A DNA stretch of 64,000 nt from an uncultured virus (IMG/VR IMGVR_UViG_3300027749_000091) (Duplodnaviria > Heunggongvirae > Uroviricota > Caudoviricetes), in the IMG/VR virus record IMGVR_UViG_3300027749_000091; one strand, 5' to 3'. The notes under the pieces are model-generated. The model ran no database searches. It was given only the letters and a program-made list of their open reading frames with translations, and was not told the origin of the DNA. Made by a program: the position numbers and the translations under genes. The first letter of the stretch is position 1. Each line of letters starts with the position of its first letter. Shown one piece after another: positions 2,526-62,362 of this stretch.

Positions 2526-2715
2526 CCGAGTTCTCCACGTTTTTTGCAAGGTCTGCGATAAAAAGACGGGCGGTCAACAGACCTTGAACTTCACCACACA
2601 TCTTTTGGTAGTCGGAATAGTCTTTAGCTGCTCCTGTACCAAGGGATTCCTGCAATCGTTGAACTTTGTCATCTATCTTTTCAGTCAGATGATTAAGCGC
2701 TTTTTCTAACATCAT
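2518..2715 (-). CDS. Small helical hypothetical protein downstream of portal
   Basis: 65 aa, coupled to the portal stop codon. Confidence 0.6.
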   Translation of the reverse strand: MMLEKALNHLTEKIDDKVQRLQESLGTGAAKDYSDYQKMCGEVQGLLTARLFIADLAKNVENSDE

Positions 2716-5207
2716 TAACCTTTATTCGTTTGTTTGGACATCATTTGGTTGTGCTTGGCAATGTCCACTCCAAGTTTGTTTGCTTCCGATGTTGACTTAG
2801 ACATAAGTCTTGCAGATTCAATTTCGCGTTGAATTTGGAGGTCTGCATTGTCTTTTTGTACCTTAGCGTTTATTTGCATTCCCGCTATACGTTCTTGTGA
2901 TGCAATTCGTTCTTGCTCTATCTGCATTTGTTGTGCCTTAGCCTGCGCATCAGACTGTGCTTTCATTTGCTTAGTTTGAGCTTCTTGAGCCTTAATTTGT
3001 AACTCTTGTTGTTGAATTTGAATCAACGGATCTTGGGCAGCCTGTTGCGCTTGTTGCGCTGCAATAGCCGTTTTATCCATTTGCAATAACTTTTGTGCTG
3101 CGGGCGCGGCTAAACGAGCAATCTGAAGTTCAACCTCTTCAGACATTTCATAGTCATCTTCCTCACTATAAGGAATTGGAACGCCAATCATATCTTCCAT
3201 TTGTTGGCGATATGCGTAACCCAAATGCTCTTGAATATGCGCCATTAACGCGCCCATAATCATTTGAGCTTGTGGGTTTTGACCAATCGTTTGCATAATT
3301 TTTGGATCTTGCATCATTGCCGTATGGACAGCAATATGGGCATCGTGATCCTGATATATAAATGCTTTCAAGGGTTTACCCTTAAGATTATCCATATTCT
3401 CAGTAATTGGATCGCGCGGTTTTTGATCGTCTGGTAAAGGTACTAGCTTTGATGCATCCTTGATTCCCAGCACATCTAACATCTGACGATGCAGCAATGG
3501 CATATTGTAAAGTTGTGGGGCGCCTTGAGCTAATTGAAGAGCAGCTTGATACTGCATAATCTTTTGGCTCATTGTTGCGGCATTAGGATCAGATACTGGA
3601 ATAACTTCTACATTGTCGTAGTCTGACTTCTTAGCCCTACGATCACCTTCTGATGGATCATATGAATATTCTTCAGGCGTGTAATCTGCAATAATTGTTT
3701 TTAATAACTTAAACTCGCGTTTCATTGAATAATGAATGCGGGCTTGTACGGCAGACATGACCTTAAGGGTTCTTTCCAGAATAGCTAGGGTTGTCCCTAC
3801 TGGGGTATTCCCTGACATATCCGCAACCTTAAGATCGGCTGCTGAGGCAAAGCGTCTACCTTCGTCTACGATCTTATCAAGCAACCCAGCCAGAACCATT
3901 GATGGTTCTTTGTACGGCAAGGTCATAATGTTGTCTTTCATCGTACCACTTGGTACGTCAACATCACGGAATTCTCCCGGTGCTATCGGCGTGTCGTCTC
4001 CTTTAACACGCAATCCACGGGTCTTAAAGCCACCCGGCAAGTTTGAAAGTGACCCTGCATCAACGAGTTGGCGGAGGATACTAGTGCCTGACTTAGCAAA
4101 AGCCCCGATAAGATGAATAAGACCAAAACAATAGAAGCCAAAACCGGGAATATAACCGTAGTGAACAAAGTGCTGCCGTTTCTTATGAGTTTCATCATCT
4201 TGATTCCAATTTCTCCTGATTGCTAAAACTGAATTACTGCCCTTTTCAATCGTTACAACATAGGGCAATGCAATTCCCGTAGCTTCTCCGTCATCATCTT
4301 CATGCTCGTAACCCTCTAAGTCTAGGTCAACGTGCATCTCCAAAACTTTAAAACGATCGTCTGAGGTAGCTCTAAAGCCAAGCTTTTCAGCAATTTTCTT
4401 TTCTACTTCATCTAATACATTGTCTGGTTCTCCAAGATCTATATCTCTATAGAATCCTGCAACCTGAAGTTTGCGTAGTTCATTTTCGCTTTTGCGCATT
4501 ACATGGGTGACGCGCTCTGCGGACTCAAGGCTTGAAGCTCCGTAAGGAACAACAATATCTTCCGCAGGAACATACATAGCTACCTGACGCTGAAGGCTTG
4601 GGTCGTAATAAATTTTCTTAAATGCGTTACCTGCGATTCCTAAACCCCAGAGTAAACGCTCTTGCTCAGGACGATATTCTTGCATTACGTCCGTTAATTG
4701 ATAGTTCATATCCGCTTGAACACGTTCCGCGGCAGCTTTCTTTTCAGGCGTTTCTTTACCAATGATCTGGGTCTTTACTGGGCCTGATGCTGGAAACGTT
4801 TCCATAATTGTTTCAGACTGGAACTTAACAACGGCCTCTGAAAGCAATGGGTGGTAAACGCCACAGGCGCCGGGCCATGGTTCCATGCGGTCTTCGATCT
4901 TCATTCCTAAAAGTTCTAGTCCGTCTACATAGGCTTGAATCCAATCTTTGCGGGAAGCAATGTCCGCATCAAAGTCGCCCGCTAAATCTCCAGCAATCTG
5001 GGATAGCGTACCTTCGCTCATATACTCAGCTAGGTTTGCGCCAAAGTCTTCATCAGTCTCTTCTTCTGGTTCAAGGCTAATTTCTAAGCCATCCATACCA
5101 ATAGTTACTGATTCTGGGTCCTCAATCTCAATATCAAGATCAGGTTCTTCTGCCACCAAAGAATCAATTCCTTCGGGTAGTTGGTATAGTGCTTTTTCAA
5201 TTGCCAT
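2715..5207 (-). CDS. Portal protein
   Basis: 830 aa directly after TerL, with a Gln-rich coiled-coil C-terminal barrel typical of P22-like portals. Confidence 0.85.
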   Translation of the reverse strand: MAIEKALYQLPEGIDSLVAEEPDLDIEIEDPESVTIGMDGLEISLEPEEETDEDFGANLAEYMSEGTLSQIAGDLAGDFDADIASRKDWIQAYVDGLELLGMKIEDRMEPWPGACGVYHPLLSEAVVKFQSETIMETFPASGPVKTQIIGKETPEKKAAAERVQADMNYQLTDVMQEYRPEQERLLWGLGIAGNAFKKIYYDPSLQRQVAMYVPAEDIVVPYGASSLESAERVTHVMRKSENELRKLQVAGFYRDIDLGEPDNVLDEVEKKIAEKLGFRATSDDRFKVLEMHVDLDLEGYEHEDDDGEATGIALPYVVTIEKGSNSVLAIRRNWNQDDETHKKRQHFVHYGYIPGFGFYCFGLIHLIGAFAKSGTSILRQLVDAGSLSNLPGGFKTRGLRVKGDDTPIAPGEFRDVDVPSGTMKDNIMTLPYKEPSMVLAGLLDKIVDEGRRFASAADLKVADMSGNTPVGTTLAILERTLKVMSAVQARIHYSMKREFKLLKTIIADYTPEEYSYDPSEGDRRAKKSDYDNVEVIPVSDPNAATMSQKIMQYQAALQLAQGAPQLYNMPLLHRQMLDVLGIKDASKLVPLPDDQKPRDPITENMDNLKGKPLKAFIYQDHDAHIAVHTAMMQDPKIMQTIGQNPQAQMIMGALMAHIQEHLGYAYRQQMEDMIGVPIPYSEEDDYEMSEEVELQIARLAAPAAQKLLQMDKTAIAAQQAQQAAQDPLIQIQQQELQIKAQEAQTKQMKAQSDAQAKAQQMQIEQERIASQERIAGMQINAKVQKDNADLQIQREIESARLMSKSTSEANKLGVDIAKHNQMMSKQTNKG

Positions 5208-5215
5208 AGTTTTTC

Positions 5216-6700
5216 CTAGTAATACGCGGTTTTGCGTCTATAAATTGGTTCATCTACTTCGTCTGTTGGTAGTCGAATAAACCCGCCTTTCCTGAAACGG
5301 ATCAAAGCTTGAGTGGAAGAGTCCACTAAGTCATCGTGATCCGAGTTTGGGAAAGCAGCCATTTCTTCGATTACTTCATCAGCCCACCTTTTGCCGGGCG
5401 CCCACACCTTGCCAGACGCAAATAAATCTGTTACGGAATTCAGCCTTGCTATCTTATCATTACCGCGGGTGGGTGTAAACTCTGTTACTGGTATCCCCAT
5501 ACGTCTTAGTTCAAATATAAGTGGCGTTCCTGAGGCTTTTGCCTCCACGATGAAGGCGTCGGGTTCCCATTCTTTGTACATCTTAAAAGCGCGCTCTTTC
5601 AGTTCTGGGAACTCTAGTCTTTCTTTCATCGCATCTAAAAGAATAATATTAGGCTGCATCTCATCTTCATTAAGATAAAAAACTCCCCATGTTGTACAGG
5701 CAGAATAGTCTGATCTTTCATTCTTAGTAAACGCCGTATCCCAAGATTGGATAATAAATTCGCATTGAGGTGGGTTTTCCTTTTCCCACTTTTGCCACCA
5801 ATCTCTCTTGACTAGGGCGCCCTCTTCTGAGGTAGGACTTTGTTGATACTGCGCGTTCCACTTAGAAACAGGCAGTTCTTCTTTTAAGGCCAGTAGTTCA
5901 TTTAGGGGCCAGAACGCAGGCCATAATGGTTTTTCGCTAGGTAGAATTGCGGGAAAACTAATAACTTCCCACTCATCGCCGTCGCGCTCGAAGGCCGATT
6001 TTAAAATTCTTCCAGTTAAATCTTTTAGGCTCCAGCGGGTCATAACGACCACAATCGCTCCTCCCGGCTGAAGTCGTTGTCTTGGGCCAGAGGAATACCA
6101 TTCAAAAACCTTATCGTAAACCTCAGGGTTTGTTGCGGCAATCGCGGCCTCTTGTTCCGAATGGGGATCGTCAATAATCAAAAGGTCCGCACCTTTACCA
6201 GTAACGGTACCGCCGACACCAATAGCGAAGTAAGTACCGCCTTTATTTGTATCCCACCGCCCCGCAGCCTTAGAGTCTGACTTCAAATCTACCGCAGGAA
6301 AAACTTCATGGTACTGGGATGAACCTACCAAGTTCCGTACTTTTCGTCCAAAGCCAACAGCCAGCTCCGCAGTATTGGAACACTGGATAATCTTCTTATC
6401 AGGGAACTTTCCCAGAAACCACGCAGGAAGCATGAAACTAGCAAACTCAGACTTAGTATGGCGAGGAGGCATATTAATAATAAGACGACGAAGTTTTCCA
6501 TCTGCTATATCCTGAAATTTCTGCGCCATAATTTTATGGTGGGCGCCGTTGATAAATCCGGGCCACATTTGGTGGACAAAAGCCATAAAGTCATTCTGTG
6601 CTTTTTCCCGCCGTAATGAGTCCGCGTACTCCTGTGCCATAGCAAACAAAGTTTCTTGTTCGTCCGCAGGAAGGCTTTCGATTAGTTTTTCTAGCTTCAC
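5216..6700 (-). CDS. terL: Terminase large subunit
   Basis: Walker A variant NMPPRHTKS, Walker B LLIIDDP, coupling motif MTRW, nuclease motifs QSWDTA and HDDLVDS. Confidence 0.95.
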   Translation of the reverse strand: MKLEKLIESLPADEQETLFAMAQEYADSLRREKAQNDFMAFVHQMWPGFINGAHHKIMAQKFQDIADGKLRRLIINMPPRHTKSEFASFMLPAWFLGKFPDKKIIQCSNTAELAVGFGRKVRNLVGSSQYHEVFPAVDLKSDSKAAGRWDTNKGGTYFAIGVGGTVTGKGADLLIIDDPHSEQEAAIAATNPEVYDKVFEWYSSGPRQRLQPGGAIVVVMTRWSLKDLTGRILKSAFERDGDEWEVISFPAILPSEKPLWPAFWPLNELLALKEELPVSKWNAQYQQSPTSEEGALVKRDWWQKWEKENPPQCEFIIQSWDTAFTKNERSDYSACTTWGVFYLNEDEMQPNIILLDAMKERLEFPELKERAFKMYKEWEPDAFIVEAKASGTPLIFELRRMGIPVTEFTPTRGNDKIARLNSVTDLFASGKVWAPGKRWADEVIEEMAAFPNSDHDDLVDSSTQALIRFRKGGFIRLPTDEVDEPIYRRKTAYY

Positions 6701-6977: not shown

Positions 6978-7841
6978 CTACCCATTTTGTTTAGAAACAG
7001 AAGGGGGGGTGTTCCCTGTAGAAACTTCTTGCCAATCGGGGTGGTTTTTTGTGCCCCCACCCCCCTCTTCCGAGTCATTTCTATGTGGTAACGTTTCCAC
7101 ATGAGCGTAACTCGTTGATTCTATTGGGGCGTTTTTAGAGGAAATGGATTTGGATGAGGATTGGGTGTCTGGATTACTATGTATTAATGGAGTCCCGCTA
7201 GTTTTTAAAAAGGGTGGGTCGGGGTCGGGTGGGGTCGCGCCCGCGCCGTCCTCGAAAGGGGCTGGCCTCGCTTGCCCGCTGATTTCTGCTAGCAAGTCGA
7301 TAGCGTCCTGATCGTCCATATCTATAGTGTTAGCTTGCATGGCTTCCTTGATCTGTGCCATTAGATCGGCGCGTATCTTATCGCTGGACTTGTGGACTAT
7401 CTGCTCGCTTACGGTTTTATAAACCGATAGCTCTGCAACCTGTCCTAGCTTAGATAGCGCTTGTATGCGCTCGCCAGCCTTACTATTGGGATCTGTGGCT
7501 TCCTTAGTGAGTTGAGATACTACAAGGGAACGCAACCGCCTGATCATTTCAGCACTTGTCTGGTAATCAACATATGCTTTAGCCCGCTCTAGAGCCTCGA
7601 CCTCTGCCTGTATTCTGCTATCTTTTGCCAATCTGCTCGCATTGTCGCTCATGGTCTTGCGCTTGCCCTTGTGCTGGTAGGCTTTATCGAATGCTTCCGT
7701 CTGGTTGAGGCCATCTACTAACCCCCGCGCAAACTGTTTCTGCTTATGGGTTAGATTGCGCTGGTTACCTAATATGACCTCTGGGGGCAACTGTGCCAGA
7801 CTGTTCTTTATTTGTTCTTTGTTTAGCTTTGGTATCTTCAT
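6978..7841 (-). CDS. terS: Terminase small subunit
   Basis: LTHKQKQFARGLVDGLNQTEAFDKAY...ASRL N-terminal HTH of TerS. Upstream of TerL. Confidence 0.8.
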   Translation of the reverse strand: MKIPKLNKEQIKNSLAQLPPEVILGNQRNLTHKQKQFARGLVDGLNQTEAFDKAYQHKGKRKTMSDNASRLAKDSRIQAEVEALERAKAYVDYQTSAEMIRRLRSLVVSQLTKEATDPNSKAGERIQALSKLGQVAELSVYKTVSEQIVHKSSDKIRADLMAQIKEAMQANTIDMDDQDAIDLLAEISGQARPAPFEDGAGATPPDPDPPFLKTSGTPLIHSNPDTQSSSKSISSKNAPIESTSYAHVETLPHRNDSEEGGGGTKNHPDWQEVSTGNTPPSVSKQNG

Positions 7842-7885
7842 TTAATGGGTATATATTAGGAATTGAGCCTATATTACCACAAACA

Positions 7886-7901
7886 CTGTATAAGCATACA
7901 G
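7886..7901. promoter_or_regulatory. LexA (SOS) box upstream of terS
   Basis: CTGT-ATAAGCAT-ACAG, a perfect CTGT-N8-ACAG, next to a minus-strand TGG-TAATAT -10-like element. Confidence 0.75.
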
Positions 7902-8071
7902 TAGTTTAGTGGATTACAGGTATCTGCTTTATGTTCTCTCCCTACTAGATTACCGACTAAGCTATTCCAGAACGAAAGATTAGCGGGCTTTTAAACTTGA
8001 TCGCGCACTAGCTCACCGAATGAGCCATTGGTAAATAAGCAACATAATAACCCTACGCATTACTCAAGTAA

Positions 8072-8100
8072 TTGCACAAGTTAATTACTTATGATCTAAT
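8072..8100 (+). promoter_or_regulatory. Sigma70-type promoter of the early region
   Basis: TTGCAC-17 bp-TCTAAT with a TGn extension. Confidence 0.6.
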
Positions 8101-8155
8101 GGTGTTTCATGCAATACATGACAGAAGTTAAACACAATAGATAAAAGGGTTCGAG

Positions 8156-8323
8156 ATGAAAACAACAGTTAAAGAAGCAGATAAATTGGCAATTGCTTTT
8201 TACCATGCAGCAATAGCTCAGGGATTAACAGAAGAAAAAGCCCAAATGCTTTTAAACAATGTTTGGGACGTAATGGTTCACGGAAAGCCCCAAGAAGAAC
8301 AGTTACCTAGCCAATTTTATTAA
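8156..8323 (+). CDS. Small early hypothetical protein (55 aa; absent from ORF track)
   Basis: Open frame ATG8156 to TAA8323 (MKTTVKEADKLAIAF...), directly before hammerhead 1. Confidence 0.6.
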   Translation: MKTTVKEADKLAIAFYHAAIAQGLTEEKAQMLLNNVWDVMVHGKPQEEQLPSQFY

Positions 8324-8326
8324 CTA

Positions 8327-8378
8327 GATCGAAACGGGTTCGCGCCCGTCTTAGCGTATTGCGCTAACTGATGAGATC
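8327..8378 (+). ncRNA. Hammerhead ribozyme, type II (copy 1)
   Basis: GAUC-GAAA-CGGG(uucgcg)CCCG-UC^-UUAGCG(uauug)CGCUAA-CUGAUGA-GAUC. All core nucleotides and three stems present; predicted cut after C8350. Confidence 0.93.
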
Positions 8379-8397
8379 AATTAACTTAGAGGAAATT

Positions 8398-8751
8398 ATG
8401 AAATTAAACTACAAGGCTTTTTGCTTTTCCTGTAAGCAAGGGGAACATAACATTCCCGCCCAATGGTATTTAACAGGCCACAACGGAAATAAACCTTTTC
8501 GCGGGTATGTTTGTGGAGATCATTACGAGATGATGGCTAATGATGGCATAGTAACTAATGCGCGCTGGATTGACATTAATGCTATCACCAGCTATTACAC
8601 CGCTTACAGTAATTTTGACCATATGATTCGCGCCTATATCGGGACACCTTATACCCCAACATTAAGGCCTGATGTAGAGCCTGATCTAGCTATTTTAAAG
8701 CGCGCATTTAATGACCGCATGACCGAATTAGGACAAGAAAACCGCGCATAG
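8398..8751 (+). CDS. Early hypothetical protein with possible Zn-binding motif, flanked by hammerheads
   Basis: RBS AGAGGA then ATG8398. Contains CFSC...CGDH. Confidence 0.7.
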   Translation: MKLNYKAFCFSCKQGEHNIPAQWYLTGHNGNKPFRGYVCGDHYEMMANDGIVTNARWIDINAITSYYTAYSNFDHMIRAYIGTPYTPTLRPDVEPDLAILKRAFNDRMTELGQENRA

Positions 8752-8802
8752 ATCGAAACCCGCGCAAGCGGGTCTAAGGGTTTAGCCCTTACTGATGAGA
8801 TC
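8751..8802 (+). ncRNA. Hammerhead ribozyme, type II (copy 2)
   Basis: GAUC-GAAA-CCCGC(gcaa)GCGGG-UC^-UAAGGG(uuuag)CCCUUA-CUGAUGA-GAUC. Stems differ from copy 1 but pair fully; predicted cut after C8774. Confidence 0.93.
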
Positions 8803-8821
8803 AATTAACTTAGAGGAAATT

Positions 8822-9025
8822 ATGCAAACAATTCAAAAGATTACAGAAAAACAAGCATTAGAAATGTATGACGATATGCTGGACGATTGCTACGGCGAGG
8901 TTAATGTTTGCGGGTATACCTACACCGCTAGCTATGCTCTAGAAGAATTGGACCCTATTGCCTATCGTTGTGGATTTAATGACTATATGGCAAACCTTGA
9001 AGATGAATACGAAATCGAGGATTAA
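8822..9025 (+). CDS. Small acidic early hypothetical protein
   Basis: RBS AGAGGA then ATG8822. YDDMLDDCYG...DPIAYRCGFNDY. Confidence 0.7.
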   Translation: MQTIQKITEKQALEMYDDMLDDCYGEVNVCGYTYTASYALEELDPIAYRCGFNDYMANLEDEYEIED

Positions 9026-9027
9026 TT

Positions 9028-9083
9028 AGTGCTGCCTGATAGGCGCTTAGATTAGGCGCTTATCGGATTATCACTTGATAGTC
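9028..9083 (+). ncRNA. Candidate structured RNA (two hairpins plus pseudoknot)
   Basis: 14-bp hairpin 9036-9066 and 6-bp hairpin 9067-9082. Loop ACU is complementary to upstream AGU at 9028. Confidence 0.5.
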
Positions 9084-9106
9084 GATAACTTAGAGGATTT
9101 ATAAAA

Positions 9107-10248
9107 ATGCGTGAAATTTATACTTTTTACTACAAGCTAGCTAACGGGCTTACCGATCAGGTGCAATTTAGGGCAGTCAGCCTAGATGATGCGCTTAATA
9201 GCTGGTATTCATTTATTTTGGAAAACCGCTTAGACGTAGTGGATTTTGACCACGAAGCCGAAGCAATCGAGGAAGAACGGGAGTTTTAAAAATGAGAAAA
9301 CTATATATAGCCAAGGGTTACAACTCTTGGAATAACAAGGAATTACATAGAGCTTTTAAAACTGAAAAAGAGGCCAACCAATTTATGAACGGGCTTACAG
9401 ACCCTCATTTAGTAGTTATGAGCTACAACACCACCACGCAACTAGTCAACACCTTATTAGGCAATCAAGGGGTAACAGCATGAACCACTACCAGCGATTT
9501 AACTACACACTAGCCCGCGCTTATGCTCGCAAGGAAATCAGCGCGAAACAGTTAACCGCATTAATAGCCATATATAGGGGGTTTAAATGAATTATTTTTA
9601 TGATAATGACGCGCACCATTTACAAGTTTATGAGGGGGATTTGCTTTTAATAGAGATTCCCTACTGCGATCCCATGACCGAGCAAGAGGCAGAACAATTA
9701 GCCATTGAATTATTCAACCAATCAAAAGAGGGGGTTTAAATGAATACATTAAGAGATCGTTTGGCAGTATCTCAAAACCTATCAGATGACAATTTAGGGC
9801 TATTTGCATGGCTTAAGGGGTATAGGTTATGCACTGAGGACTGCCAAGAAATACGCGGAACCGCTTATTCTGGCGAAACAGTATCCCATGCAGTAGAGGA
9901 TTTTTTAAACGCTTACGAGGCTTAGGGGGAAAAATGGAAGATTTTACAGGGCAGGGCATTCTAGAGGACGCGTATTCATTTGATAGGCCAGCGCATATCG
10001 TGGGGAACGCGCTTTTAAACGGGTTTATCCGCGCCGGGTATACCAAAGAACAGGCCATAAACCTATTCTATTCTAAGGCCGTTAGGTGGGCATTAGATGG
10101 CGCACTAGGGGAACACCTAGAAGAGATCGGGTTCCAATACGGGCAGATTATGGCGCAGGAATACACGCCCGAGGAATTCAACTACCCATTACAACCCGAT
10201 CAAAAGATTGCGCTTATGCAGCATAACCGTATTGAGGAAAAAGCATAA
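9107..10248 (+). other. Cluster of short tandem early ORFs (9107-9289, 9292-9483, 9480-9590, 9587-9739, 9740-9925, 9934-10248)
   Basis: Abutting ORFs with purine-rich RBSs. No function recognised. Confidence 0.6.
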
Positions 10249-10832
10249 TGAAAATTTTAGTGGCTTGTGAGTTTTCTGGTGTTGTAAGGGACGCATTTTC
10301 ATCATTAGGTCATTACGCTATGAGTTGCGATATTTTGCCCACGGAAAAAAATGGTAATCATTATCAAGGCGACATACGAGATGTATTGGAATGGGATTGG
10401 GACTTAATGATAGCCCACCCACCATGCACATATTTATCTAATGCTGGTGCTAGGCATTTATACCCAAAAAAAGTATTAAATAAAAATAGGCTAGCAAAAG
10501 GATTGGAAGCTAAAGATTTTTTTATGACTTTGTATAATGCTCCAATATTAAAAATATGTATTGAGAATCCAATTCCCTCAAAAATATTTGAATTGCCTAA
10601 ATATAACCAAATAATTCAACCCTATGAATTTGGACACCCTTTTAAGAAAAAAACGTGCTTATGGCTTAGGGGGCTTGAGCCCCTTATTCCCACGCAAATT
10701 TTAGAGGAAAGGCAAAGCAGCAAAATAGCCGGAAATTGGTTCAACAAAGGCGGAAAAGATAGGCAAAAAAATCGTGCAAAAACGTTTGATGGTATTGCGG
10801 AAGCTATGGCAACCCAATGGGGAAACCTGTAA
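10248..10832 (+). CDS. Short phage-type DNA cytosine methyltransferase-like protein
   Basis: MKILVACEFSG (motif I-like), AHPPC catalytic motif, ENP, and KKTCLWL. Confidence 0.75.
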   Translation: MKILVACEFSGVVRDAFSSLGHYAMSCDILPTEKNGNHYQGDIRDVLEWDWDLMIAHPPCTYLSNAGARHLYPKKVLNKNRLAKGLEAKDFFMTLYNAPILKICIENPIPSKIFELPKYNQIIQPYEFGHPFKKKTCLWLRGLEPLIPTQILEERQSSKIAGNWFNKGGKDRQKNRAKTFDGIAEAMATQWGNL

Positions 10833-10889
10833 AAGTTACCCTGAAATGCCTCATTTAAGGGGGGTATTTTGGAGTAGGGTTTACCCTAT
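10831..10889 (+). ncRNA. Second instance of the 9028-9083 RNA architecture, or a terminator/operator region
   Basis: AAA-GUUAC, then a 12-bp hairpin 10841-10872, then hairpin GUAGGG(uuua)CCCUAU. Confidence 0.35.
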
Positions 10890-11026
10890 GTTTTCACTTG
10901 CTTTCGTGGCAAGTGAGAATATTTAGTAGTAGAAGGCTATTTTTTTAAAGTCGGCATTAAGTATTAATTGTTGTTGTATTTTTTGCAGTAAAAAGCTAAG
11001 AGCGGGTCAGGCTTAGTGAAATAATT

Positions 11027-11055
11027 TTGCATTACGCAATATATGGTAGTAAGAT
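11027..11055 (+). promoter_or_regulatory. Sigma70-type promoter
   Basis: TTGCAT-17 bp-TAAGAT, followed by the AACCTAGAGGAG RBS module. Confidence 0.55.
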
Positions 11056-11096
11056 TTGTATTGTATTGAAGAAGGCTAACCTAGAGGAGAAACAAA

Positions 11097-13072
11097 ATGA
11101 GCTATGACTCTGATTTTGAAAGTGTTTTTATGGTGGAATTTGAATCAGGTAAAACAATCAATGTTAGTTTTTACAATGTTGAAGATGTAAAACAATATTG
11201 TAAGTATGCGTATGAAGGACAAGCTATCAAATCAATTTATCAAGAAGTTTATATTGCGGAGGAAGCATGAAAAAAGTTTAAAGCCACATGGGGTGAAGGC
11301 TATGTTAATCCCGAAACATCAATTATCAGTTTTGACGAAATTGATAATGACAATGGCTGGGAGGAATGGGCGATTGAAAAAATTAATGCTCTTGCAATAG
11401 GACAAAGTGCTGATTGCTCTGATATTAGTGGAGTTGTAAATGTTCAACGAATTTCTTAGGGGAAACAAAAATGAAAATAACGCTTGAAGTAGAAGTGCCA
11501 AAAGGCACAACAGTTGCAGAGATTGAAGGTGCAGTCAAACAACATTTTGACCCTGATTGGATGTCAAGCTGGTGGCATATTGATGATGTAAAAGGCCAAG
11601 CAAATGGCTGGGATGAGGAAGATACAGAACATTCCATTACAGATGAAGAAGCGCGTGAAATATTGCGCCTAGCTGATAAGTATCACAATTGCGAAGTAGG
11701 AATCAATTGGGATGTATTAGATCATTGGATTGACCATCTAAAAGCACAACGAAAGGAAGTAGCATGAACTTAGACGAGATGAGAGATCACTTTGCGGGAT
11801 TGGCTTTACCCGCAGTTATGGCAAAGTATCCTAGTGCTAGTGAGATTGGGGTGGCAGAGCTAGCCTATTCTTATGCGGACGCTATGATTGTGGTCAGAGA
11901 TGTTGAACCCCAAGATTATGGAGTAAATAATGAAATATAAAGTATATCTAATTGACAAGATTATAGAGGCCGATACCCCCATTGAGTTGCACAACATGGT
12001 TTGGGATTGGCAGATCGACCACCAGATCGCGGAGGACGATTGGACTAGCCCTGCCGTATGGTTTGGTAGTGAAGTAATCGGGGCAATTAACTACAACGGG
12101 AGGATATGTGAACAAAAAAAGGAAGATTGAGGATTTAACAAAAAACATTATTTACATGGAAACAATGTATCTAGCAGTAGAGGGCTATAAAAAGGACATT
12201 GTTAAAAAGAACCTAGAGAGAACCGCGGAGGAATTATGCAACTTGATAAAAGCTATTTCATTAACCAAATAGAGCAGTATCTACATAAAATGGACAAAGA
12301 CGAAATGAAACCATACGCCGTTAAAGTGAATTATAGTGGGACTAAGTGGTATTTTTTAGACGCACCGGACGAGAGCGAGGCCGAGGAAGTAGCTTGCGAA
12401 ATGTTTGGAAACGAGTTTAAATTGAAAGACGTAGAAACAGAAGCATTTGCAGAAAGGGATAGTGATGACTAATGAAAAGGAATTCTTTGACGCGCTTTTA
12501 AAGCTGGAAAAGATAAAGCCGACGGAACCATTGACGGACGCAGAGATAGAGCAAATCTACTTTGATGTATCTAGATTAACCTCAATTAGCCCGCTACTTG
12601 ACTTTGTTAGACGGATTGAACACGCACATGGGATTGGAGTTAATGATGAATGATACCCTGCAAGTTGGTGATGTAATCTGTGCATTCCTGTTTGGCCTAT
12701 TCATTGTTGCGTGGTGCTTAATATGACGCGGGACAGGCTTATAGGCCTAGTAGGCCAAATGGATTCTATGGGAGGTTTTGCTGGTAAAATAGGTGAAGCT
12801 GCTTTATTGGCTGACAAAGACAATCTTCAAAGGCTGATGGACGCCTTTCCTGAGTATTTTATTGAGCAAAAGGCTACTGCGTGGACGCGACTATTATTTA
12901 CTTGAAAGACGGTAAAGACGGGAAGATTGAGGTATCTATGGAACTGATTGGCGATCCAAGCCAATCATTCCTAGTTGCTAATGCTATCGTCAATAACCTA
13001 TATATGCTGGAAAATACTGTATTCGTGAACAACGAGTTTACCCAACAACCACCTACGACAAGAGTGCAATAA
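11097..13072 (+). other. Second cluster of short early ORFs (including 11471-11767, 11764-11940, 11930-12130, 12236-12472, 12881-13072)
   Basis: Tightly packed small plus-strand ORFs of unknown function. Confidence 0.55.
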
Positions 13073-13835
13073 GGCTTTTACCAGCTATATCAGCACCAAC
13101 CCTTAACTCGAAATCATTGAAATCTTCGCCTGTATTTGGGGAAACCCAATACGGGCGATTTGTTTTCTTAGCGGTCTTAATTCCTACGGGGTCATGGTCT
13201 GCCACTATCAGGCCATCAGGAAACTGTTTGGATACTTCCAATAGGTTGCTAGCCGAAAAGCAAACAACGATCTTGTAGCGCGTTTTAATGGCCTTCAATG
13301 CCCGTCTTATGGACATAGCCGTAGCGTATCCCTCACACAAGAGTGGGACACCCTTGTTATCAAAGATTGCAACCGCGCCCTTATTCTTTTGCCCAGAAAG
13401 AAACTTCTTAGTTCCGTCAGTATCTATCAGTTGGAGGCCAGAAATGTTGCCATCTATCCGCATTGGGATAACTAGCTTTCCTTCCCAGATCAATGCTTCC
13501 TCTTCTGCAAAACCCTTGCGGCCTAGATAAGCATGAGTGGCTTTAATCGCTTGCTTAAGTATCCAGCCAGCTTTGGATGCCGCCTTCTGGTTACGTTCTT
13601 CAGTATTCTTTTGGGACTGTTGTATCTTAACTCTGTATAAGGGATCATTTGCACCTTTCCAAGATATAGCTTTTTCATGGACTGCCCAATTCTTAACCGC
13701 GCCCGAATTACCATCGTAAATATAAGAACCATTCCGCTTCTTTGGGTGATCTAAAGTAGGAACTCTAGTCCACCGATCATAAACAAGGTGATCTATGATT
13801 AACCCGTGTTGCTCTGCAAACGCCTGAAAGCTCAT
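13053..13835 (-). CDS. TOPRIM-domain DNA primase-like protein
   Basis: LVIPM...LQLI..DGTKKF; TOPRIM motifs LCEGYATA and IVADHD. Confidence 0.85.
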   Translation of the reverse strand: MSFQAFAEQHGLIIDHLVYDRWTRVPTLDHPKKRNGSYIYDGNSGAVKNWAVHEKAISWKGANDPLYRVKIQQSQKNTEERNQKAASKAGWILKQAIKATHAYLGRKGFAEEEALIWEGKLVIPMRIDGNISGLQLIDTDGTKKFLSGQKNKGAVAIFDNKGVPLLCEGYATAMSIRRALKAIKTRYKIVVCFSASNLLEVSKQFPDGLIVADHDPVGIKTAKKTNRPYWVSPNTGEDFNDFELRVGADIAGKSLIALLS

Positions 13836-16652: not shown

Positions 16653-17136
16653 ACGATCTTTGGCTTAATTGTTTTAAATCACTTGATTCTTTATCTGTTA
16701 ATGATGATACGTTCTTCATTGATTCCAATGGAAAGTAAGTAATCTCATGGTAATTTAGAGGGTAATTAATTTGCTTGCCGTTATGATTTATAACCTTAGG
16801 TTCCATCAAAACATCCAAATAATTGCCATAAATTCTTTTTTCAAACTCATCCACAAAAAACAAAAACACCCGCAAATTGTGTTGATTACTAATAAATAAA
16901 TAATCCTTTAAGTGGCGATTATCTATGCCGGTATCAGGGTAATACGTTCTACGGGCTTTAGTTTTTACATCAACAATAGCCAATGATTTTTTATCTGGCG
17001 TAGCAATTAACCGATCAAAAGGATGAGCGCCATCAAACACGGGGTGATAAGGAATGATGTTATTTTTAAGCAGATAAGTATCTACCAAACTCTCACCCAA
17101 ATCCCCCTTTTTAACTTCGGTTCTATCCTGCCACAT
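16618..17136 (-). CDS. PD-(D/E)XK restriction-endonuclease-fold protein
   Basis: KGDLGESLV...PFDRL...VDVKTK. Its start overlaps the stop of the methyltransferase gene. Confidence 0.65.
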   Translation of the reverse strand: MWQDRTEVKKGDLGESLVDTYLLKNNIIPYHPVFDGAHPFDRLIATPDKKSLAIVDVKTKARRTYYPDTGIDNRHLKDYLFISNQHNLRVFLFFVDEFEKRIYGNYLDVLMEPKVINHNGKQINYPLNYHEITYFPLESMKNVSSLTDKESSDLKQLSQRSYEYQRTDKKSS

Positions 17137-18239
17137 TAAAATTTCTCAGTATCATTTCCAAAGGTTTCCCAACCCTCTCGTTTCTCACGGCTAAAGTATT
17201 CTAACTTTCTACCAATCGTAACTTCATCTACCATCTGATAAAACGCATCTGGCTTACGGCTATGCTGACGGCGCGACTCTCTGATGATGTCCCGCCATGT
17301 AGTGTTATTCCATTTTGGTTTGCCTTTAACCGCAACCAAACAAAACTCGCACTGCATTCTTAACCAGCTTCCCATGCCAATCTTTTCCTTATCCCATACC
17401 ATTGTTGCCTTATATTCAAAGCCCCAATGATTTAGTAGCTCTTTAGCATCAAAGATAAATTGATGGGTAGTCCATAGGAATAACACGCTATCTTTGGCAA
17501 AAGGAATCTCCATCTTCAGTAGCTCATCTTGCTTCATCTCTGGATATGGATTGGCTACACGGCTGCCTTCTGGATCATACTTGCGCCCATAGTTCCAAGG
17601 AGGATCAAGCACAACTATCTCAAACACACCCGATGGAAGAACGGCCTTACCGGTAGCAATATCTTCTTTCTGTTGGGCTACATCTTCCTCGTGTTGTTGC
17701 TTTTTCTCTGCATTTTTAATTTGTTTGTGGGCTTCATTAATACTAATCTCGCCTTTAGCTAAAGCTTTCTTTACTTCTTCTGATCCTTTTTCCTCAATCT
17801 TATTAACTTTAGATATGGTGTCGTGAGAAACGCCAGCTAATTTTGCTAACTCTGCATTAACGTGTACCGGTTTAGCAGATTTCTGCTGAACCGCTCCACC
17901 GGAAGCTTTTTGATTTGCTTTGGCTCTTGCGGAAATTTCTGATCCTAAACGAATTGCCAGAGTGCCACGAACATAAGGGTTTAAGTTTCTACGCCCAAAT
18001 TGATTGGTAATAATCCATTCAATTACCTCACTGCGGTTTTCAAAAGCGCGATCTATTGTTTTAAATGGCAGATCATTGCGCTTACAAATGTCATAACGGT
18101 TATGCCCGTCTACTAACACCCCGTTCCAAAGAACTAATGGGTCTCTACAACCATCCCGCTTAATGTTTTCCTCAAGTTGTAAAAGCTCTGCTGGTGCTAA
18201 CTCCGGAATTAAATCTTTAAACTCGTTATCAATTTTCAT
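17136..18239 (-). CDS. ParB-like domain fused to an MT-A70 family adenine methyltransferase
   Basis: N-terminal RDPLVLW..VLVDGHNRY (ParB). C-terminal LDPPW, LFLWTT, WDK, W.R...EFCL, HSRKP, LEYFSR (MT-A70). Confidence 0.9.
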   Translation of the reverse strand: MKIDNEFKDLIPELAPAELLQLEENIKRDGCRDPLVLWNGVLVDGHNRYDICKRNDLPFKTIDRAFENRSEVIEWIITNQFGRRNLNPYVRGTLAIRLGSEISARAKANQKASGGAVQQKSAKPVHVNAELAKLAGVSHDTISKVNKIEEKGSEEVKKALAKGEISINEAHKQIKNAEKKQQHEEDVAQQKEDIATGKAVLPSGVFEIVVLDPPWNYGRKYDPEGSRVANPYPEMKQDELLKMEIPFAKDSVLFLWTTHQFIFDAKELLNHWGFEYKATMVWDKEKIGMGSWLRMQCEFCLVAVKGKPKWNNTTWRDIIRESRRQHSRKPDAFYQMVDEVTIGRKLEYFSREKREGWETFGNDTEKF

Positions 18240-18300: not shown

Positions 18301-18475
18301 AACTGAACCCGTTTGGTGGGCGCACCTAGCCTACCTAGGTGAGCCTTCAACTGAACCCTCTTTGGAGCCACAGCACCCGCCAGCCGCTCGTAGAATCGGT
18401 GCTAGCTTCGCCGCCGATATATGCACTATTCCGTCTACTACCCCCAGTAGTGCTGATACCTAACCCGCTGGTGTA
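18301..18475 (-). ncRNA. Candidate GC-rich structured non-coding element
   Basis: Stems CACCUAG/CUAGGUG, AUCGG/CCGAU, GCACUA/UAGUGC and CCAGC/GCUGG. Direct repeat AACTGAACCC at 18301 and 18349. Confidence 0.4.
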
Positions 18476-18504
18476 TTTGAAGCCGCCCAGATTAGACAGC
18501 AGAA

Positions 18505-19223: not shown

Positions 19224-19301
19224 AATAGTTGAAAGAAAGTGGGTATAACCTATTTACAATTATTCATTCATGGATTATATTCCCAATCAGAGGAGAGGCA
19301 A

Positions 19302-20156
19302 ATGAAAAAGGTGTGTGTAGTTAATTTCTGGGATGGCGCGTTCGATGGGGACTTTTTTGAGTTCTTTTTCCGCACTGCCTTTGACGGCATAGAATATGTA
19401 GATAGCCCGCATGAAGCTGACGTAGTTATTAGTTCCGTATTTGGACATACACAGACCGACCCTGCAAAAACAATTATGTATATTGGCGAGAATGTACGTC
19501 CTAATTACATGGGATACAACCACTCCCTTTCATTTGATCACGATACCTATGGTGGACGTAATTTTCGTTTACCTTTATGGTGGTCACGCCTTGCATGGGA
19601 TGGATTTACACAAAAGCCCCGCAAACAGAATTCCCACAATCATGGATACGAAGACCTTATATCCATTGATTCCCTAACAAACGGGCGCACTCTTGATTTG
19701 AGCCAGAAGACTAAGTTCTGCGCCATGATTGCTGGGAACCCTGAAGGTCTGCGGATCAACTTGTACAACTCACTGCACAAGTACAAACCAGTAGACGGGT
19801 ACGGGCTTATGTTTGGCAACTCATTACGCCAATCTAAGTTTGATATTTTGCCTGAGTATAAGTTTTGCTTATGCCCAGAGAATTCGGTTTATGACGGCTA
19901 TGTAACTGAGAAACTGATTGACGCATACGCGGGCGGCACTGTGCCTATTTATGGCGGCGATGTATCGGTGTCCGAAGACTTTAACCACAACGCATTTTTA
20001 AACTATCAAGAAATCAAAGATATGGAAAAGTTTGTAGAACACGTTTCTTTTTTTGACCGCAACACAGAAGCATACCGAGCTGTATATGAAAGGCCTTTAC
20101 TGGACGAAGCGCCAAGTCTTGACGGCGCAATTAAATTTATAAGGAGCATTGTATGA
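19302..20156 (+). CDS. Glycosyltransferase family 10 (alpha-1,3-fucosyltransferase-like)
   Basis: Signature YKFCLCPENS..DGYVTEKL.DAY..GTVPIY.G. RBS GAGGAG before ATG19302. Confidence 0.88.
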   Translation: MKKVCVVNFWDGAFDGDFFEFFFRTAFDGIEYVDSPHEADVVISSVFGHTQTDPAKTIMYIGENVRPNYMGYNHSLSFDHDTYGGRNFRLPLWWSRLAWDGFTQKPRKQNSHNHGYEDLISIDSLTNGRTLDLSQKTKFCAMIAGNPEGLRINLYNSLHKYKPVDGYGLMFGNSLRQSKFDILPEYKFCLCPENSVYDGYVTEKLIDAYAGGTVPIYGGDVSVSEDFNHNAFLNYQEIKDMEKFVEHVSFFDRNTEAYRAVYERPLLDEAPSLDGAIKFIRSIV

Positions 20157-20365
20157 AGATAAAAACAAAACTACTTAAAGAAAAAAAAGATGGCTCGGCT
20201 ATTTGCCAACTTGATTTAGATAGGGAAGCTAAAGACTGGTTAATAGGTGAGGGGTTTGTATCCGTGCTAAGTAAAGCATTGGGAGTGTCAGAGTCATTTG
20301 CAAAGAAACAGCCTAAACGAATAAGAGAACTAGTAAAAGATTTAGATATGGACGGGCGTTGTTGA
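20153..20365 (+). CDS. Small hypothetical protein
   Basis: 70 aa, ATGA overlap with the GT10 gene. Confidence 0.55.
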   Translation: MKIKTKLLKEKKDGSAICQLDLDREAKDWLIGEGFVSVLSKALGVSESFAKKQPKRIRELVKDLDMDGRC

Positions 20366-21234: not shown

Positions 21235-21482
21235 GAGAAGAATTTTTAGCATGGGCAAAGAAAAAGAGATTATTAGAAGAGGGGAATTTAGAATCAACAG
21301 ATCATATGGTTGGTTGGCTATGGATTACTTGGCAAACAGCATGGAGAGTGGGCGCCGCAAGCCATAAACCCACAATGGATAAGTTGCGCATGGAACGCGA
21401 TGCTTATGAACAAGAAATACAAAAAACACTTACACAGAAATATTATTTTGAGGCTTTGGCAGAACAAAACGAAAAATTATGA
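21231..21482 (+). CDS. Small hypothetical protein
   Basis: 83 aa, coupled to both neighbours. Confidence 0.5.
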   Translation: MREEFLAWAKKKRLLEEGNLESTDHMVGWLWITWQTAWRVGAASHKPTMDKLRMERDAYEQEIQKTLTQKYYFEALAEQNEKL

Positions 21483-22210: not shown

Positions 22211-22361
22211 AGACGAATTTGCTAAATCAATTATGGCTGGCATTATTGCGGCTGATTGGAAATTTGATTTGACTGAAAAGAAGTGGGACGAGATTGCCGC
22301 TAAACGTGCCTATGAATTAGCCGATGCCATGATTAAAGAGAGGGAGATTGGGAATGTCTGA
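22200..22361 (+). CDS. Small phage protein of the RD.FA...AY..ADAM type (absent from ORF track)
   Basis: MELRDEFAKSIMAG...AYELADAMIKER, similar to 11764-11940. Confidence 0.6.
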   Translation: MELRDEFAKSIMAGIIAADWKFDLTEKKWDEIAAKRAYELADAMIKEREIGNV

Positions 22362-51561: not shown

Positions 51562-51564
51562 GGT

Positions 51565-52518: not shown

Positions 52519-52519
52519 A

Positions 52520-52885: not shown

Positions 52886-52899
52886 TAGAATCTCCTTTG

Positions 52900-57250: not shown

Positions 57251-57251
57251 A

Positions 57252-62350: not shown

Positions 62351-62362
62351 TTAATTAGCTCC

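Follow-up and report, generated by a model that had tools for sequence, protein, structure and literature searches.

Two short motifs that resemble hammerhead ribozymes lie one on each side of a single small gene in the genome of an uncultured freshwater phage, and the question that this locus raises is whether they are genuine ribozymes and, if so, what they do for the gene between them. The window, by which we mean the whole 64,000-nucleotide stretch of DNA that was analysed, is recognisable as a phage genome by its terminase, portal, head and tail genes. Both motifs, designated HH1 and HH2, are intergenic and lie on the coding strand around one ORF. The features of the locus are collected in Table 1.

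Table 1. Coordinates of the two hammerhead motifs and of the features around them (positions in the window)
Feature	Position	Strand	Description
Upstream small ORF	8156-8323	+	55 aa, no family; stop codon TAA ends 3 nt before HH1
HH1	8327-8378	+	type II hammerhead; stem II, 8327-8330 with 8375-8378; GAAA, 8331-8334; stem III hairpin, 8334-8349; GUC, 8348-8350; stem-loop I, 8351-8367; CUGAUGA, 8368-8374
Linker	8379-8397	+	19 nt, from HH1 to ATG (8398); Shine-Dalgarno AGAGGA at 8388-8393
Bracketed ORF	8398-8751	+	117 aa; Cys/His-rich N-terminus; no Pfam or PHROG family
HH2	8751-8802	+	type II hammerhead; GUC, 8772-8774; stem-loop I, 8775-8791; CUGAUGA, 8792-8798
Downstream ORF	8822-9025	+	67 aa; phrog_9294, unknown function
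34-nt exact direct repeat	8367-8400 and 8791-8824	+	3' part of ribozyme, RBS and ATG
Predicted double-cleavage product	8351-8774	+	424 nt; 5'-OH stem I hairpin, RBS, ORF, stem III hairpin, 2',3'-cyclic phosphate

Both copies read, from 5' to 3', GAUC-GAAA-(stem III hairpin)-GUC^-(stem I hairpin)-CUGAUGA-GAUC, with predicted cut sites after C8350 in HH1 and after C8774 in HH2, a spacing of 424 nt. The invariant core (C3-U-G-A-U-G-A9, G12-A-A14 and the N-U-H triplet) is complete and correctly ordered in each copy and aligns to the core columns of the Rfam model RF02276, and the three helices round the core are present together with the G10.1-C11.1 and A15.1-U16.1 closing pairs. Stems I and III each have 6 bp, with an additional U.G in stem I, and stem II has 4 bp; loops sit on stems I and III (the latter capped by a GCAA loop in HH2) and stem II is open, which is the topology of a type II hammerhead. 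When the isolated 54-mers were folded, the minimum free energy (MFE) structure of each was the exact three-way junction (-17.5 and -21.4 kcal/mol). When 111 nt of context were included, stems I and III were kept and the 4-bp stem II was absent from the MFE structure; the predicted weakness of this stem counts against activity of the ribozymes. The two copies differ on both sides of two pairs in stem I, and in stem III on both sides of two pairs plus one change of U.G to C-G, and no pair is broken in either stem. A relaxed motif scanner found two sites in the 64-kb window, whereas none of 300 dinucleotide-preserving shuffles gave any.

A covariance-model search was the check suggested by the first-pass annotation, and its outcome was divided. 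An Rfam scan of the whole window at the gathering threshold returned no hammerhead match, and neither did a scan of 631 nt at E<=10 return any match. On 91-nt slices, the Hammerhead_II model RF02276 aligned to both copies over model positions 1-66, with 19.5 bits (E 0.039) for HH1 and 24.0 bits (E 0.0025) for HH2. Both scores are below the gathering score of 37 bits, and the default scans were blank for this reason. The suggestion that the lack of a covariance-model hit would speak against the motifs therefore fails, as at the Rfam default threshold it would wrongly dismiss them. Relatives behave likewise: when 20 related loci were scanned with Rfam at E<=1, eight Hammerhead_II matches were found in seven loci with 25.3-33.4 bits, so that even the best (33.4) remained under the 37-bit threshold. 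The copies share topology and invariant core with RF02276, but their 4-bp stem II is partly treated as an insertion by the model and loop I has 5 nt here as against about 10 in the model. Our own covariance model R1, which was built from 87 viral relatives and favours the GAUC form, gave 67.2 bits for HH1 and 67.1 bits for HH2, with the third-best match in the 64 kb at only 11.0 bits.

Because the pattern used to collect the relatives came from the core of the two motifs in the window, the invariance of the core and of GAUC among them is by construction; independent evidence comes only from stems I and III, from the flanks and from the gene context. At least 123 viral loci or contigs have the same compact form, and the matches listed contain 101 unique ribozymes. 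Among these listed matches the core positions are intact in 101/101, and the nucleotide at the cleavage site is C in 99, U in one and A in one, all of which are allowed. Pairs 1-6 of stem I were paired in 100% of cells (97 sequences among the matches listed) as compared with 49.7% after shuffling, with four to six pair types at each position, and pairs 2-5 of stem III in 96.3% of cells as compared with 60.2% (again among the matches listed). Alignment A1, with 87 sequences from the matches listed, had 98.6% of cells paired versus 68.5% when shuffled and 28-46% in slid controls; both sides change in 11 of its 16 pairs, and its covariation score of 0.713, versus 0.132, was reached in 0 of 500 shuffles. 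Nearby copies carry GAGC/GCUC, GACC/GGUC, GGAC/GUCC or AGUC/GACU in place of GAUC/GAUC, which shows that stem II covaries too. Outside the helices, a U at position 7 of loop I is invariant (97/97 among the matches listed), and stem II is flanked by A at -1 in 100/101 and by A at +1 in 92/101 of the ribozymes listed. In HH1 and HH2 the loop I U is at 8357 and 8781 and the flanking As are at 8326/8379 and 8750/8803, and these bases may take part in a tertiary contact. One relative, G002 (locus L057), contains the HH2 52-mer unchanged; another, an 18.5-kb sequence, is a fragment of the same phage and adds no independent evidence. No match to positions 7800-9100 was obtained by blastn against GenBank phages; an 81-nt HH2 region gave 10 short matches (E 2-8), and two of the phages matched, Morganella phage vB_Mm5 and Acinetobacter phage phi5013-M1, had no R1 match. 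These blastn searches and the R1 scan of the two phages identified no cultured phage with the compact subfamily.

The first-pass annotation had described two complete hammerheads with an invariant core and a GAUC/GAUC stem II in each, and had taken the compensatory differences between them as a sign of selection on the fold. All of this is borne out: the core and the stem II sequence are seen in both copies, the helices, shuffles and relatives agree, and selection on the fold follows from the copy differences together with the pairing statistics of the relatives. We conclude that HH1 and HH2 are confirmed, by these sequence comparisons, as genuine type II hammerheads under selection for their fold, and that they are most likely self-cleaving elements, as predicted from their structure. 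It could be argued that they are inactive relics, or mere hairpin pairs akin to terminators or RNase III sites that look like hammerheads by descent or by chance, given that they score under the Rfam threshold and that plain tandem hairpins occupy other gaps of the operon and also the homologous gap in relatives. This is hardly credible when the core is intact in both copies and in all of the listed relatives, the covariation is strong and no shuffle reproduces the motif.

How fast the ribozymes might cleave is another matter. For fast type II cleavage, a pseudoknot that pairs loop I with the 3' tail is described as critical, and in the consensus loop I forms at least 4 bp with the nucleotides directly 3' of stem II in the majority, not all, of the ribozymes (Perreault et al., 2011; PMC3088659). 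For the compact subfamily, the mean longest helix available to such a pseudoknot was 2.20 bp as compared with 2.34 bp in shuffles, and pairing of loop I with either the 3' or the 5' flank was no better than in shuffles. By eye, 3 bp can be drawn for HH1 and 4 bp including a G.U for HH2, both within the range of chance. The pseudoknot, a further point of difference from RF02276, is thus without support here, and the cleavage rate at physiological Mg2+ is uncertain.

The position of the ribozymes relative to genes is conserved. Among the matches listed, 89 of 101 relatives lie in the sense orientation between the end of one ORF and the start of the next (9/101 for the antisense control); the distance from stop codon to ribozyme is usually -1 to +3 nt, and the start codon usually follows after 20-27 nt. 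The window follows the same pattern, as the first-pass annotation had recognised: each ribozyme lies at or just after the upstream stop codon, with stops ending at 8323 and at 8749-8751 (the G of this TAG being the first base of HH2), and is followed by an identical RBS and start, since the 34-nt repeat contains both AGAGGA and the ATG at 8398 and 8822. It was equally right that the twin hammerheads bracket one gene, and a double cut would free the RBS and ORF together as the RNA listed in Table 1, a product predicted from the cut sites and established hammerhead chemistry. The description of the locus as an early polycistron stands less firmly; the gene order points to it, but a promoter and terminator scan of 7700-13100 gave counts that were not above those of shuffles.

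Taking these observations together, we consider it likely that both are active type II hammerheads of a compact phage subfamily and that they split a polycistron into separate hairpin-ended messages. Members of this subfamily combine an open stem II of 4 bp, a stem-loop I of 17 nt and a short hairpin as stem III, and their place is precisely the gap that separates a stop codon from the RBS of the following gene. As the plus-strand operon of small genes (8156 to approximately 12900) is transcribed, each ribozyme would fold and cut after GUC. The new 3' end of the upstream cistron would consist of the stem III hairpin and one nucleotide bearing a 2',3'-cyclic phosphate, and the downstream cistron would begin with the first paired base of the stem I hairpin, which would carry a 5'-OH, the start codon coming 47 nt further on. 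The polycistron would in this way be converted to separate messages without a host nuclease, the stability and translation of each would then be independent of its neighbours, and the 117-aa gene would be expressed from a 424-nt monocistronic mRNA. The motif, selection on it and its constant position are established by the sequence comparisons; cleavage in vivo, and ends that stabilise or insulate the messages, are inferred.

We also considered whether the hammerheads might be tied to specific genes and rejected this. Homologs of the 117-aa gene, 84-86% identical, occur on eight other viral contigs and none of them is flanked by a hammerhead; the protein has no Pfam or PHROG family, and its Atlas neighbours are all hypothetical. 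A homolog of the 67-aa gene lies directly after an HH2-type ribozyme in G002, whereas among more distant homolog loci only 2/77 have a type II hammerhead nearby, located downstream of the gene. A metagenome scan for a near-identical 67-aa gene found none, the best being 66%.

A different use for the cuts would be decay or dosage control, in which cleavage uncouples one flank and shortens its life, for example to tune down early genes. However, both predicted products end in flush hairpins, one with a 5'-OH and the other with a 2',3'-cyclic phosphate on a 1-nt overhang. RNase E senses 5' ends, and 3' exonucleases need single-stranded tails, so that hairpins with such non-canonical termini would make poor decay substrates; we infer that cleavage would stabilise the messages rather than destabilise them. 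On the other hand, Perreault et al. (2011; PMC3088659) leave the purpose of such ribozymes open, stating that 'other possibilities exist', and in their treatment of the halovirus HF1/HF2 hammerhead discuss ribozyme-tuned transcript stability. The genes flanked are not constant, either in their account or in the homolog loci above (2/77), which fits generic regulatory punctuation. On balance we regard a role in decay as unlikely.

A more far-reaching proposal is that the freed 8351-8774 RNA becomes a circular mRNA, its ends being joined by a chimeric hammerhead assembled from the 5' half of HH2 and the 3' half of HH1 and sealed either by a host RtcB-type ligase or by the reverse reaction of the ribozyme, to give an exonuclease-proof translatable circle. 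If true, this would be a DNA phage making a translatable, exonuclease-resistant circular mRNA. The first-pass annotation had pointed out that ligated ends would rebuild a hammerhead, and geometrically this is so: the GAUC/GAUC stem II is identical in both copies, so the chimeric junction equals either parent. The 5'-OH and 2',3'-cyclic phosphate ends are described as RtcB substrates (Olzog 2021; PMC8782182), and circularisation by tandem hammerheads is reported for retrozymes and viroid-like RNAs (de la Pena 2020; PMC7761336). Elsewhere the geometry is less favourable. Among the matches listed, the chimeric stem II would be fully paired in 7/14 neighbouring pairs of related loci and mismatched in the other 7/14, in three of which a single pair adjoins the core, and rebuilding of the ribozyme is therefore not conserved. 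Single copies also prevail (100/113 related loci among the matches listed, with only 300-600 nt of flank examined; a second copy lies 221-536 nt away in the remaining 13/113), and a lone copy excises nothing. Neither RtcB nor any other RNA ligase turned up among 70 ORFs (PHROGs) or 33 (Pfam), a scan in which small ORFs and ORFs without family matches could still encode one, and the titles and abstracts retrieved by a literature search on phage hammerheads, RtcB and circular RNA mention no phage hammerhead circles. We consider a circular mRNA very improbable.

The exact repeat raises a further question, as it may act at the level of DNA. Ribozyme and RBS would here form a portable homology patch at which short-homology recombination between related phages could add, remove or exchange 'ribozyme-RBS-ORF' units, and the cassette of 424 bp would be one of them; this is compatible with RNA processing. 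Of the 34-nt exact repeat, 22 nt lie beyond the ribozyme, and the intervening stems have diverged, a pattern more easily explained by recombination or conversion than by duplication and subsequent drift. HH1 and HH2 also lie at boundaries where the gene content of relatives differs. The 61-kb relative G002 has only an HH2-type copy, before its 67-aa homolog, and a different upstream gene; in a contig of run X5 (approximately 95% similar) the 67-aa gene follows immediately on an HH1-like copy, and further joints of this contig end at 8325/8326; and run X8 carries the exact HH1 and HH2 52-mers in different flanks. In a 100%-identical contig from run X4, 8366 is followed directly by 8791, so that exactly 424 bp are missing. 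The occurrence of the 117-aa gene on the eight contigs without hammerheads is in keeping with a mobile cassette, and among the proteins encoded by the phage are a Sak-like annealing protein and a PD-(D/E)XK exonuclease.

The X4 joint may nevertheless be an artefact of assembly, as the 34-nt repeat is longer than the 31-letter word length of the Logan index, at which the Logan contigs were presumably also assembled. Depth in X4 is 0 at both edges of the cassette and an internal piece of it stands at 2.3 as compared with 4.43; the X4, X5 and X8 comparison involves DNA contigs only, and the uncovered parts of the cassette in X4 prove nothing. Joints also occur at operon boundaries that have no hammerheads (9096/9113 and 9294/9480), which indicates that mosaicism is not specific to the ribozymes, and any direct repeat can recombine without a selected function. 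A recombination patch is thus possible, but we would advance it only tentatively.

Returning to the likely function in splitting the operon transcript, three aspects seem to us to matter. The subfamily, present in at least 123 viral contigs, is large and very uniform (4-bp stem II, 17-nt stem-loop I with an invariant U, no supported pseudoknot) and falls systematically below the Hammerhead_II threshold, so that routine annotation misses it. Its fixed placement, in which ribozyme and stop codon adjoin and the start lies approximately 20-27 nt downstream, makes the idea of a natural 'insulator' testable by reporters. Finally, the presence of ribozymes where gene content differs raises the question of whether the same sequence could be an RNA processing site and a DNA recombination patch.

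In several known systems, intergenic cuts divide a polycistron into messages that end in hairpins and whose 5' end is defined and independent of the upstream context. Coliphage T7 has RNase III sites between its early genes, where the cuts need a host protein enzyme, and RiboJ is a synthetic ribozyme insulator engineered from a satellite-RNA hammerhead. The present locus resembles both, but its cut would be natural and, as predicted, self-catalysed. Retrozymes and viroid-like RNAs likewise use two hammerheads of the same polarity to free a unit-length RNA with a rebuildable ribozyme and ligatable termini, features that are predicted here; as described by de la Pena (2020; PMC7761336), however, those hammerheads are of type III or I, occur in eukaryotes and have demonstrated circles, whereas here they are of type II, belong to a DNA phage and enclose a protein-coding insert, and the circle is conjectural. 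A closer parallel is provided by the type II hammerheads loc 2 and loc 3 of Desulfovibrio vulgaris, which are paired approximately 313 nt apart near phage-like genes and for which cleavage in vivo is reported by cyPhyRNA-seq (Olzog 2021; PMC8782182); sequences and host differ, and the ends that were measured there are predicted here. The halovirus HF1/HF2 hammerhead is similarly placed a short way before a start codon, 13 nt ahead of the first ORF of an early polycistron, with a transcript 5' end that maps no more than 3 nucleotides from the cleavage site, but it is a single copy with a variant core in an archaeal virus (Perreault et al., 2011; PMC3088659).

The nearest known arrangement is that of the clustered prophage hammerheads, among them the triple arrangement around ardA in A. 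tumefaciens and the cases in A. caulinodans and C. scindens (Perreault et al., 2011; PMC3088659). The layout seen here is not new, having been in print for phages since that publication in 2011, and hammerhead punctuation of a phage operon is in itself an ordinary finding. As in those clusters, several coding-strand hammerheads lie between the genes of a phage operon; the present pair differs in coming from a freshwater phage that is uncultured and in having two copies of compact type II form, each with a 4-bp GAUC stem II. Prophage hammerheads flanking single genes are reported by Perreault et al. (2011) to cleave both in vitro and in E. coli, whereas cleavage of the two copies described here is predicted from their sequence. 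The role that those authors proposed for the prophage ribozymes, the conversion of long transcripts to single-gene mRNAs around flanked genes that are not constant, is the same as the one that we favour for HH1 and HH2.

HH1 and HH2 were both read directly from the sequence as GAUC-GAAA-(hairpin)-GUC-(hairpin)-CUGAUGA-GAUC. Numbered as a hammerhead, each copy runs from the 3' strand of stem II through G12-A14, stem III (A15.1 to U16.1), C17 with the scissile bond, stem-loop I and C3-A9 to the 5' strand of stem II; this order of segments is the type II permutation. A relaxed scanner (core, stem II of at least 2 bp with a C-G closing pair, stem III of at least 3 bp and stem I of at least 4 bp) picked out HH1, HH2 and nothing else in the window, and 300 dinucleotide-preserving shuffles gave no site at all; we conclude that the motifs are real. 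Two stem I pairs and two stem III pairs are altered on both sides between the copies, one further pair is altered on one side, and no pair is broken. The TAA of the 55-aa ORF lies 3 nt before HH1, and the first G of HH2 is part of the TAG of the 117-aa ORF. An exact 34-nt repeat (8367-8400 and 8791-8824) takes in the 3'-terminal 12 nt of each ribozyme together with the following 22 nt, which contain AGAGGA and ATG. The first-pass annotation had described two complete type II hammerheads whose stems I and III differ yet stay paired, each beside an upstream stop and followed by an identical RBS and start, and all of this was borne out; its cuts, after C8350 and C8774, are likewise sound as geometry and would release a 424-nt unit (8351-8774). 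The minimum free energy (MFE) structure of each isolated 54-mer is a three-way junction; in 111 nt of context the 4-bp stem II is lost from the MFE structure while stems I and III are kept, and by these predictions stem II is marginal.

No hammerhead was returned by Rfam at gathering thresholds over the whole window, or at E<=10 over 631 nt. When the Rfam Hammerhead_II model (RF02276, gathering 37) was applied to 91-nt slices, HH1 scored 19.5 bits (E 0.039) and HH2 24.0 bits (E 0.0025), each over the whole model length, and at E<=1 it gave 8 matches in 7 of 20 related loci, all sub-threshold (25.3-33.4 bits). These low scores are explained by what RF02276 is built for: stem II of 2 bp, loop I of roughly double the length, and conservation of the 3' tail. 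The Hammerhead_II check that the first-pass annotation had proposed thus gave full-length but sub-threshold alignments on slices and nothing at gathering, and the covariance-model half of its refutation rule would, on the blank default scans, have wrongly counted against the motif.

We searched IMG/VR with a pattern in which the core and a GAUC stem II were fixed while stems I and III were left free, and at least 123 stretches carry it. The 129 matches listed represent 101 unique ribozymes, among which stem-loop I is exactly 17 nt in 97; the cut would follow a C in 99, a U in one and an A in one. Among the same listed matches, stem I pairs 1-6 are intact in all 97 sequences and each position shows 4-6 pair types (49.7% paired, at most 55.5%, with shuffled partners); for stem III pairs 2-5, taken across 101 sequences, the paired share of cells is 96.3%, compared with 60.2% when shuffled. 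For an alignment we required a 17-nt stem-loop I, at least 6 contiguous stem I pairs, at least 4 in stem III and at most 61 nt; 88 of the 101 passed, and one related locus (L057) with a core identical to that of HH2 was dropped. The resulting 87 sequences have 98.6% of cells paired (68.5% shuffled; 28-46% with partners slid), although, as the filter favours pairing, the unfiltered figures are the fairer. Both-sided change occurs in 11 of 16 pairs, and the covariation score, 0.713 against 0.132, was reached in none of 500 shuffles. Neighbouring second copies have other 4-bp stem II sequences (GAGC/GCUC, GACC/GGUC, GGAC/GUCC and AGUC/GACU), so that stem II covaries too, and the motif is under selection. 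Our covariance model built from this alignment (R1), with filters off, gave HH1 and HH2 67.2 and 67.1 bits, the next best site in the window scoring 11.0 bits; since the search pattern was taken from the core of the window copies, the core contribution to these scores is circular, whereas that of the stems is not. The same architecture is seen with other allowed cleavage triplets at related loci L028:196-251 (GUU) and L193:585-638 and L197:714-767 (GUA, with a GCCC/GGGC stem II).

In most type II hammerheads loop I and the 3' tail form a pseudoknot that is critical for speed, according to the available text of Perreault et al. (2011, PMC3088659). The present family gives no support for such pairing (mean longest helix 2.20 bp, compared with 2.34 +/- 0.07 for shuffled tails), and nothing was found for loop I with the 5' flank. 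Among the matches listed, the first position of loop I is U in 97/97 and the third is A in 76/97 (U in both window copies), and A precedes stem II in 100/101 and follows it in 92/101. Loop-loop stabilised hammerheads offer a structural precedent, and by analogy the flanking adenines may replace loop II by contacting the loop I uridine.

Placement was counted for ORFs of at least 40 codons that end no more than 30 nt upstream or start no more than 60 nt downstream of a ribozyme. Among the matches listed, 90 of 101 unique members have such an ORF end (the stop overlaps the first G in 30 and ends 0-3 nt before it in 47), 100 have such a start, mostly 20-27 nt away and ATG in 93, and 89 have both, compared with 9/101 for the antisense control. 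The window copies, with upstream gaps of 3 and -1 nt and downstream gaps of 19 nt, fit this placement. Most members sampled are single copies; a second same-strand hammerhead lies 221-536 nt away, the span of one small gene, at 13 of 113 loci with a scanner match and flanks of only 300-600 nt, so the twin layout with 424-nt spacing is typical of the family. Tandem plain hairpins rather than a ribozyme occupy a later gap of the operon, before the next RBS, and also the gap after the 117-aa gene homolog in eight relatives (L131-L138; for example L133:1850-1945). The first has 10-13 bp and the second 7 bp, of the form GAUUNNC-loop4-GNNANUC, with compensatory changes between the window and L133; neither had an Rfam match at E<=0.5. 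This is compatible with, and at most hints at, hairpin pairs and ribozymes being interchangeable intergenic processing or stabilising elements.

A single tailed-phage genome, about 62.3 kb long, makes up essentially the whole window. Genes for head, tail and lysis share the minus strand with the packaging genes in the table, as do a primase, a helicase, a ParB-like protein and a Sak-like annealing protein with an exonuclease (PHROGs, Pfam). Diverging from the terminase genes, some 25 small ORFs, nearly all without a PHROGs or Pfam family, run from 8156 to about 12900 (+), and by position only this would be an early operon; promoter and terminator counts in it were not above shuffles. The first and last ~1.7 kb are 87-96% identical at an offset of about 62.32 kb, so the window extends past a full genome and enters a further copy that is not identical; mixed strains in the assembly, a tandem arrangement or terminal repeats that have diverged could explain this. 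The DNA is present in freshwater metagenome runs, and an 18.5-kb fragment of the same phage (G001) is known. The Betaproteobacteria-1 RNA, which adjoins the methyltransferase gene on its upstream side, may hint at a betaproteobacterial host. The glycosyltransferase cluster is a sugar-modification block, unusual for a phage, and the phrog_2295 paralogues share glycine-rich imperfect repeats (DNA repeat family D1, 31 copies) and common 126-nt gene 3' ends encoding their C-termini.

Features of the window discussed in the text
Feature	Coordinates	Strand	Source or remark
Diverged end copies	1-1700; 62319-64000
Portal	2715-5207	-	PHROGs/Pfam ORF scan
Large terminase	5216-6700	-	PHROGs/Pfam ORF scan
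Small terminase	6978-7841	-	PHROGs/Pfam ORF scan
55-aa ORF	8156-8323	+
HH1	8327-8378	+	type II hammerhead
117-aa ORF	8398-8751	+
HH2	8751-8802	+	type II hammerhead
67-aa gene	8822-9025	+
Tandem plain hairpins	9026-9110	+
ParB/MT-A70 methyltransferase gene	17136-18239	-
Betaproteobacteria-1 RNA	18375-18497	-	RF02932, full length, 89.3 bits (gathering 49.4)
Family 10 fucosyltransferase-like, radical SAM/SPASM, family 2 glycosyltransferase and Anp1-like proteins	19239-24028	+	clustered
2046-aa polyvalent protein	30384-36524	-	ddrB-like ParB domain, LPD38
Two GIY-YIG homing-endonuclease-like ORFs	46852-47424; 56582-57307	-	phrog_314, within structural module
Three paralogous ORFs (927, 317 and 398 aa)	48512-54096	-	phrog_2295

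Gene content at the ribozymes is mosaic. In a 61-kb relative, 95% complete (G002), the sole ribozyme is of the HH2 type (its 52-mer is identical), preceded by a different gene of ~285 codons and followed by a homolog of the 67-aa gene. In DNA contigs of metagenome run X5, a ~95%-similar relative has an HH1-like ribozyme fused, with a single additional C, to the 67-aa gene homolog, and further joints end at 8325/8326; in contigs of run X8 both the HH1 and the HH2 52-mer recur exactly, in different surroundings. An 851-nt contig from run X4, 100% identical, joins 8366 to 8791 and omits exactly the 424-bp unit. This contig may be an assembly artefact: the 34-nt repeat exceeds the 31-letter word length of the Logan contig index, at which the contigs were presumably assembled. 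Depth in X4 is 0 at both cassette edges and 2.3 against 4.43 for an internal cassette piece, and a metagenome scan gave no near-identical copy able to decide the joint. An association with particular genes was ruled out, since homologs of the 117-aa gene (84-86% identical) occur in eight other contigs without hammerheads and only 2 of 77 loci with 67-aa gene homologs have a type II hammerhead nearby; the same is stated in the accessible part of Perreault et al. (2011, PMC3088659). A specific role for the hammerheads at the DNA level could account for the mosaic, in that the 22 non-ribozyme nt are identical while the stems have diverged, a pattern better explained by recombination or conversion than by duplication and drift, and an annealing protein and an exonuclease are encoded by the phage itself; however, joints in the DNA contigs also occur at gaps without ribozymes, and we therefore regard such a role as unlikely.

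Beyond excision, the idea was raised that the 8351-8774 RNA closes into a circle. As both copies are GAUC/GAUC its ends could rebuild a hammerhead, and the predicted termini suit RtcB; however, nothing beyond this geometry speaks for a circle: an RNA ligase was not found among the phage ORFs scanned (PHROGs, Pfam), 7 of 14 neighbouring pairs at related loci would form a chimeric stem II with mismatches (a biased sample, each pair containing a GAUC copy by construction), and single copies predominate in the family. A literature search, so far as the sources were available in text, gave no report of circles from phage hammerheads.

From the motif and its placement we infer that the ribozymes split the message. 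After cleavage the 3' end of the upstream message would be the stem III hairpin and a single further nucleotide bearing a 2',3'-cyclic phosphate, and the downstream message would begin with a 5'-OH precisely where the stem I pairing starts, about 38 nt before the RBS. RNase E senses 5'-monophosphate ends, 3' exonucleases require a single-stranded tail and poly(A) polymerase requires a 3'-OH, so these ends should protect both products, and each cistron would become independent of its neighbours. The same role was proposed for prophage hammerheads, and cleavage of an A. tumefaciens hammerhead trio was shown in vitro and in E. coli, in the portions available of Perreault et al. (2011, PMC3088659); in vivo cleavage at two D. 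vulgaris type II hammerheads ~313 nt apart is described in the available text of Olzog et al. (2021, PMC8782182). Excision of a monocistronic RNA is probable as biology. The arrangement is of a kind already described in 2011, to which the present data add, modestly, a uniform pseudoknot-less subfamily below the Rfam threshold, a rigid stop-ribozyme-RBS placement and a hint, met repeatedly, of DNA-level variation in hammerhead-bounded units. Comparable devices are the RNase III sites of the T7 early operon, which the window hammerheads would resemble in their working but without a host enzyme, and synthetic ribozyme insulators, which would work alike.
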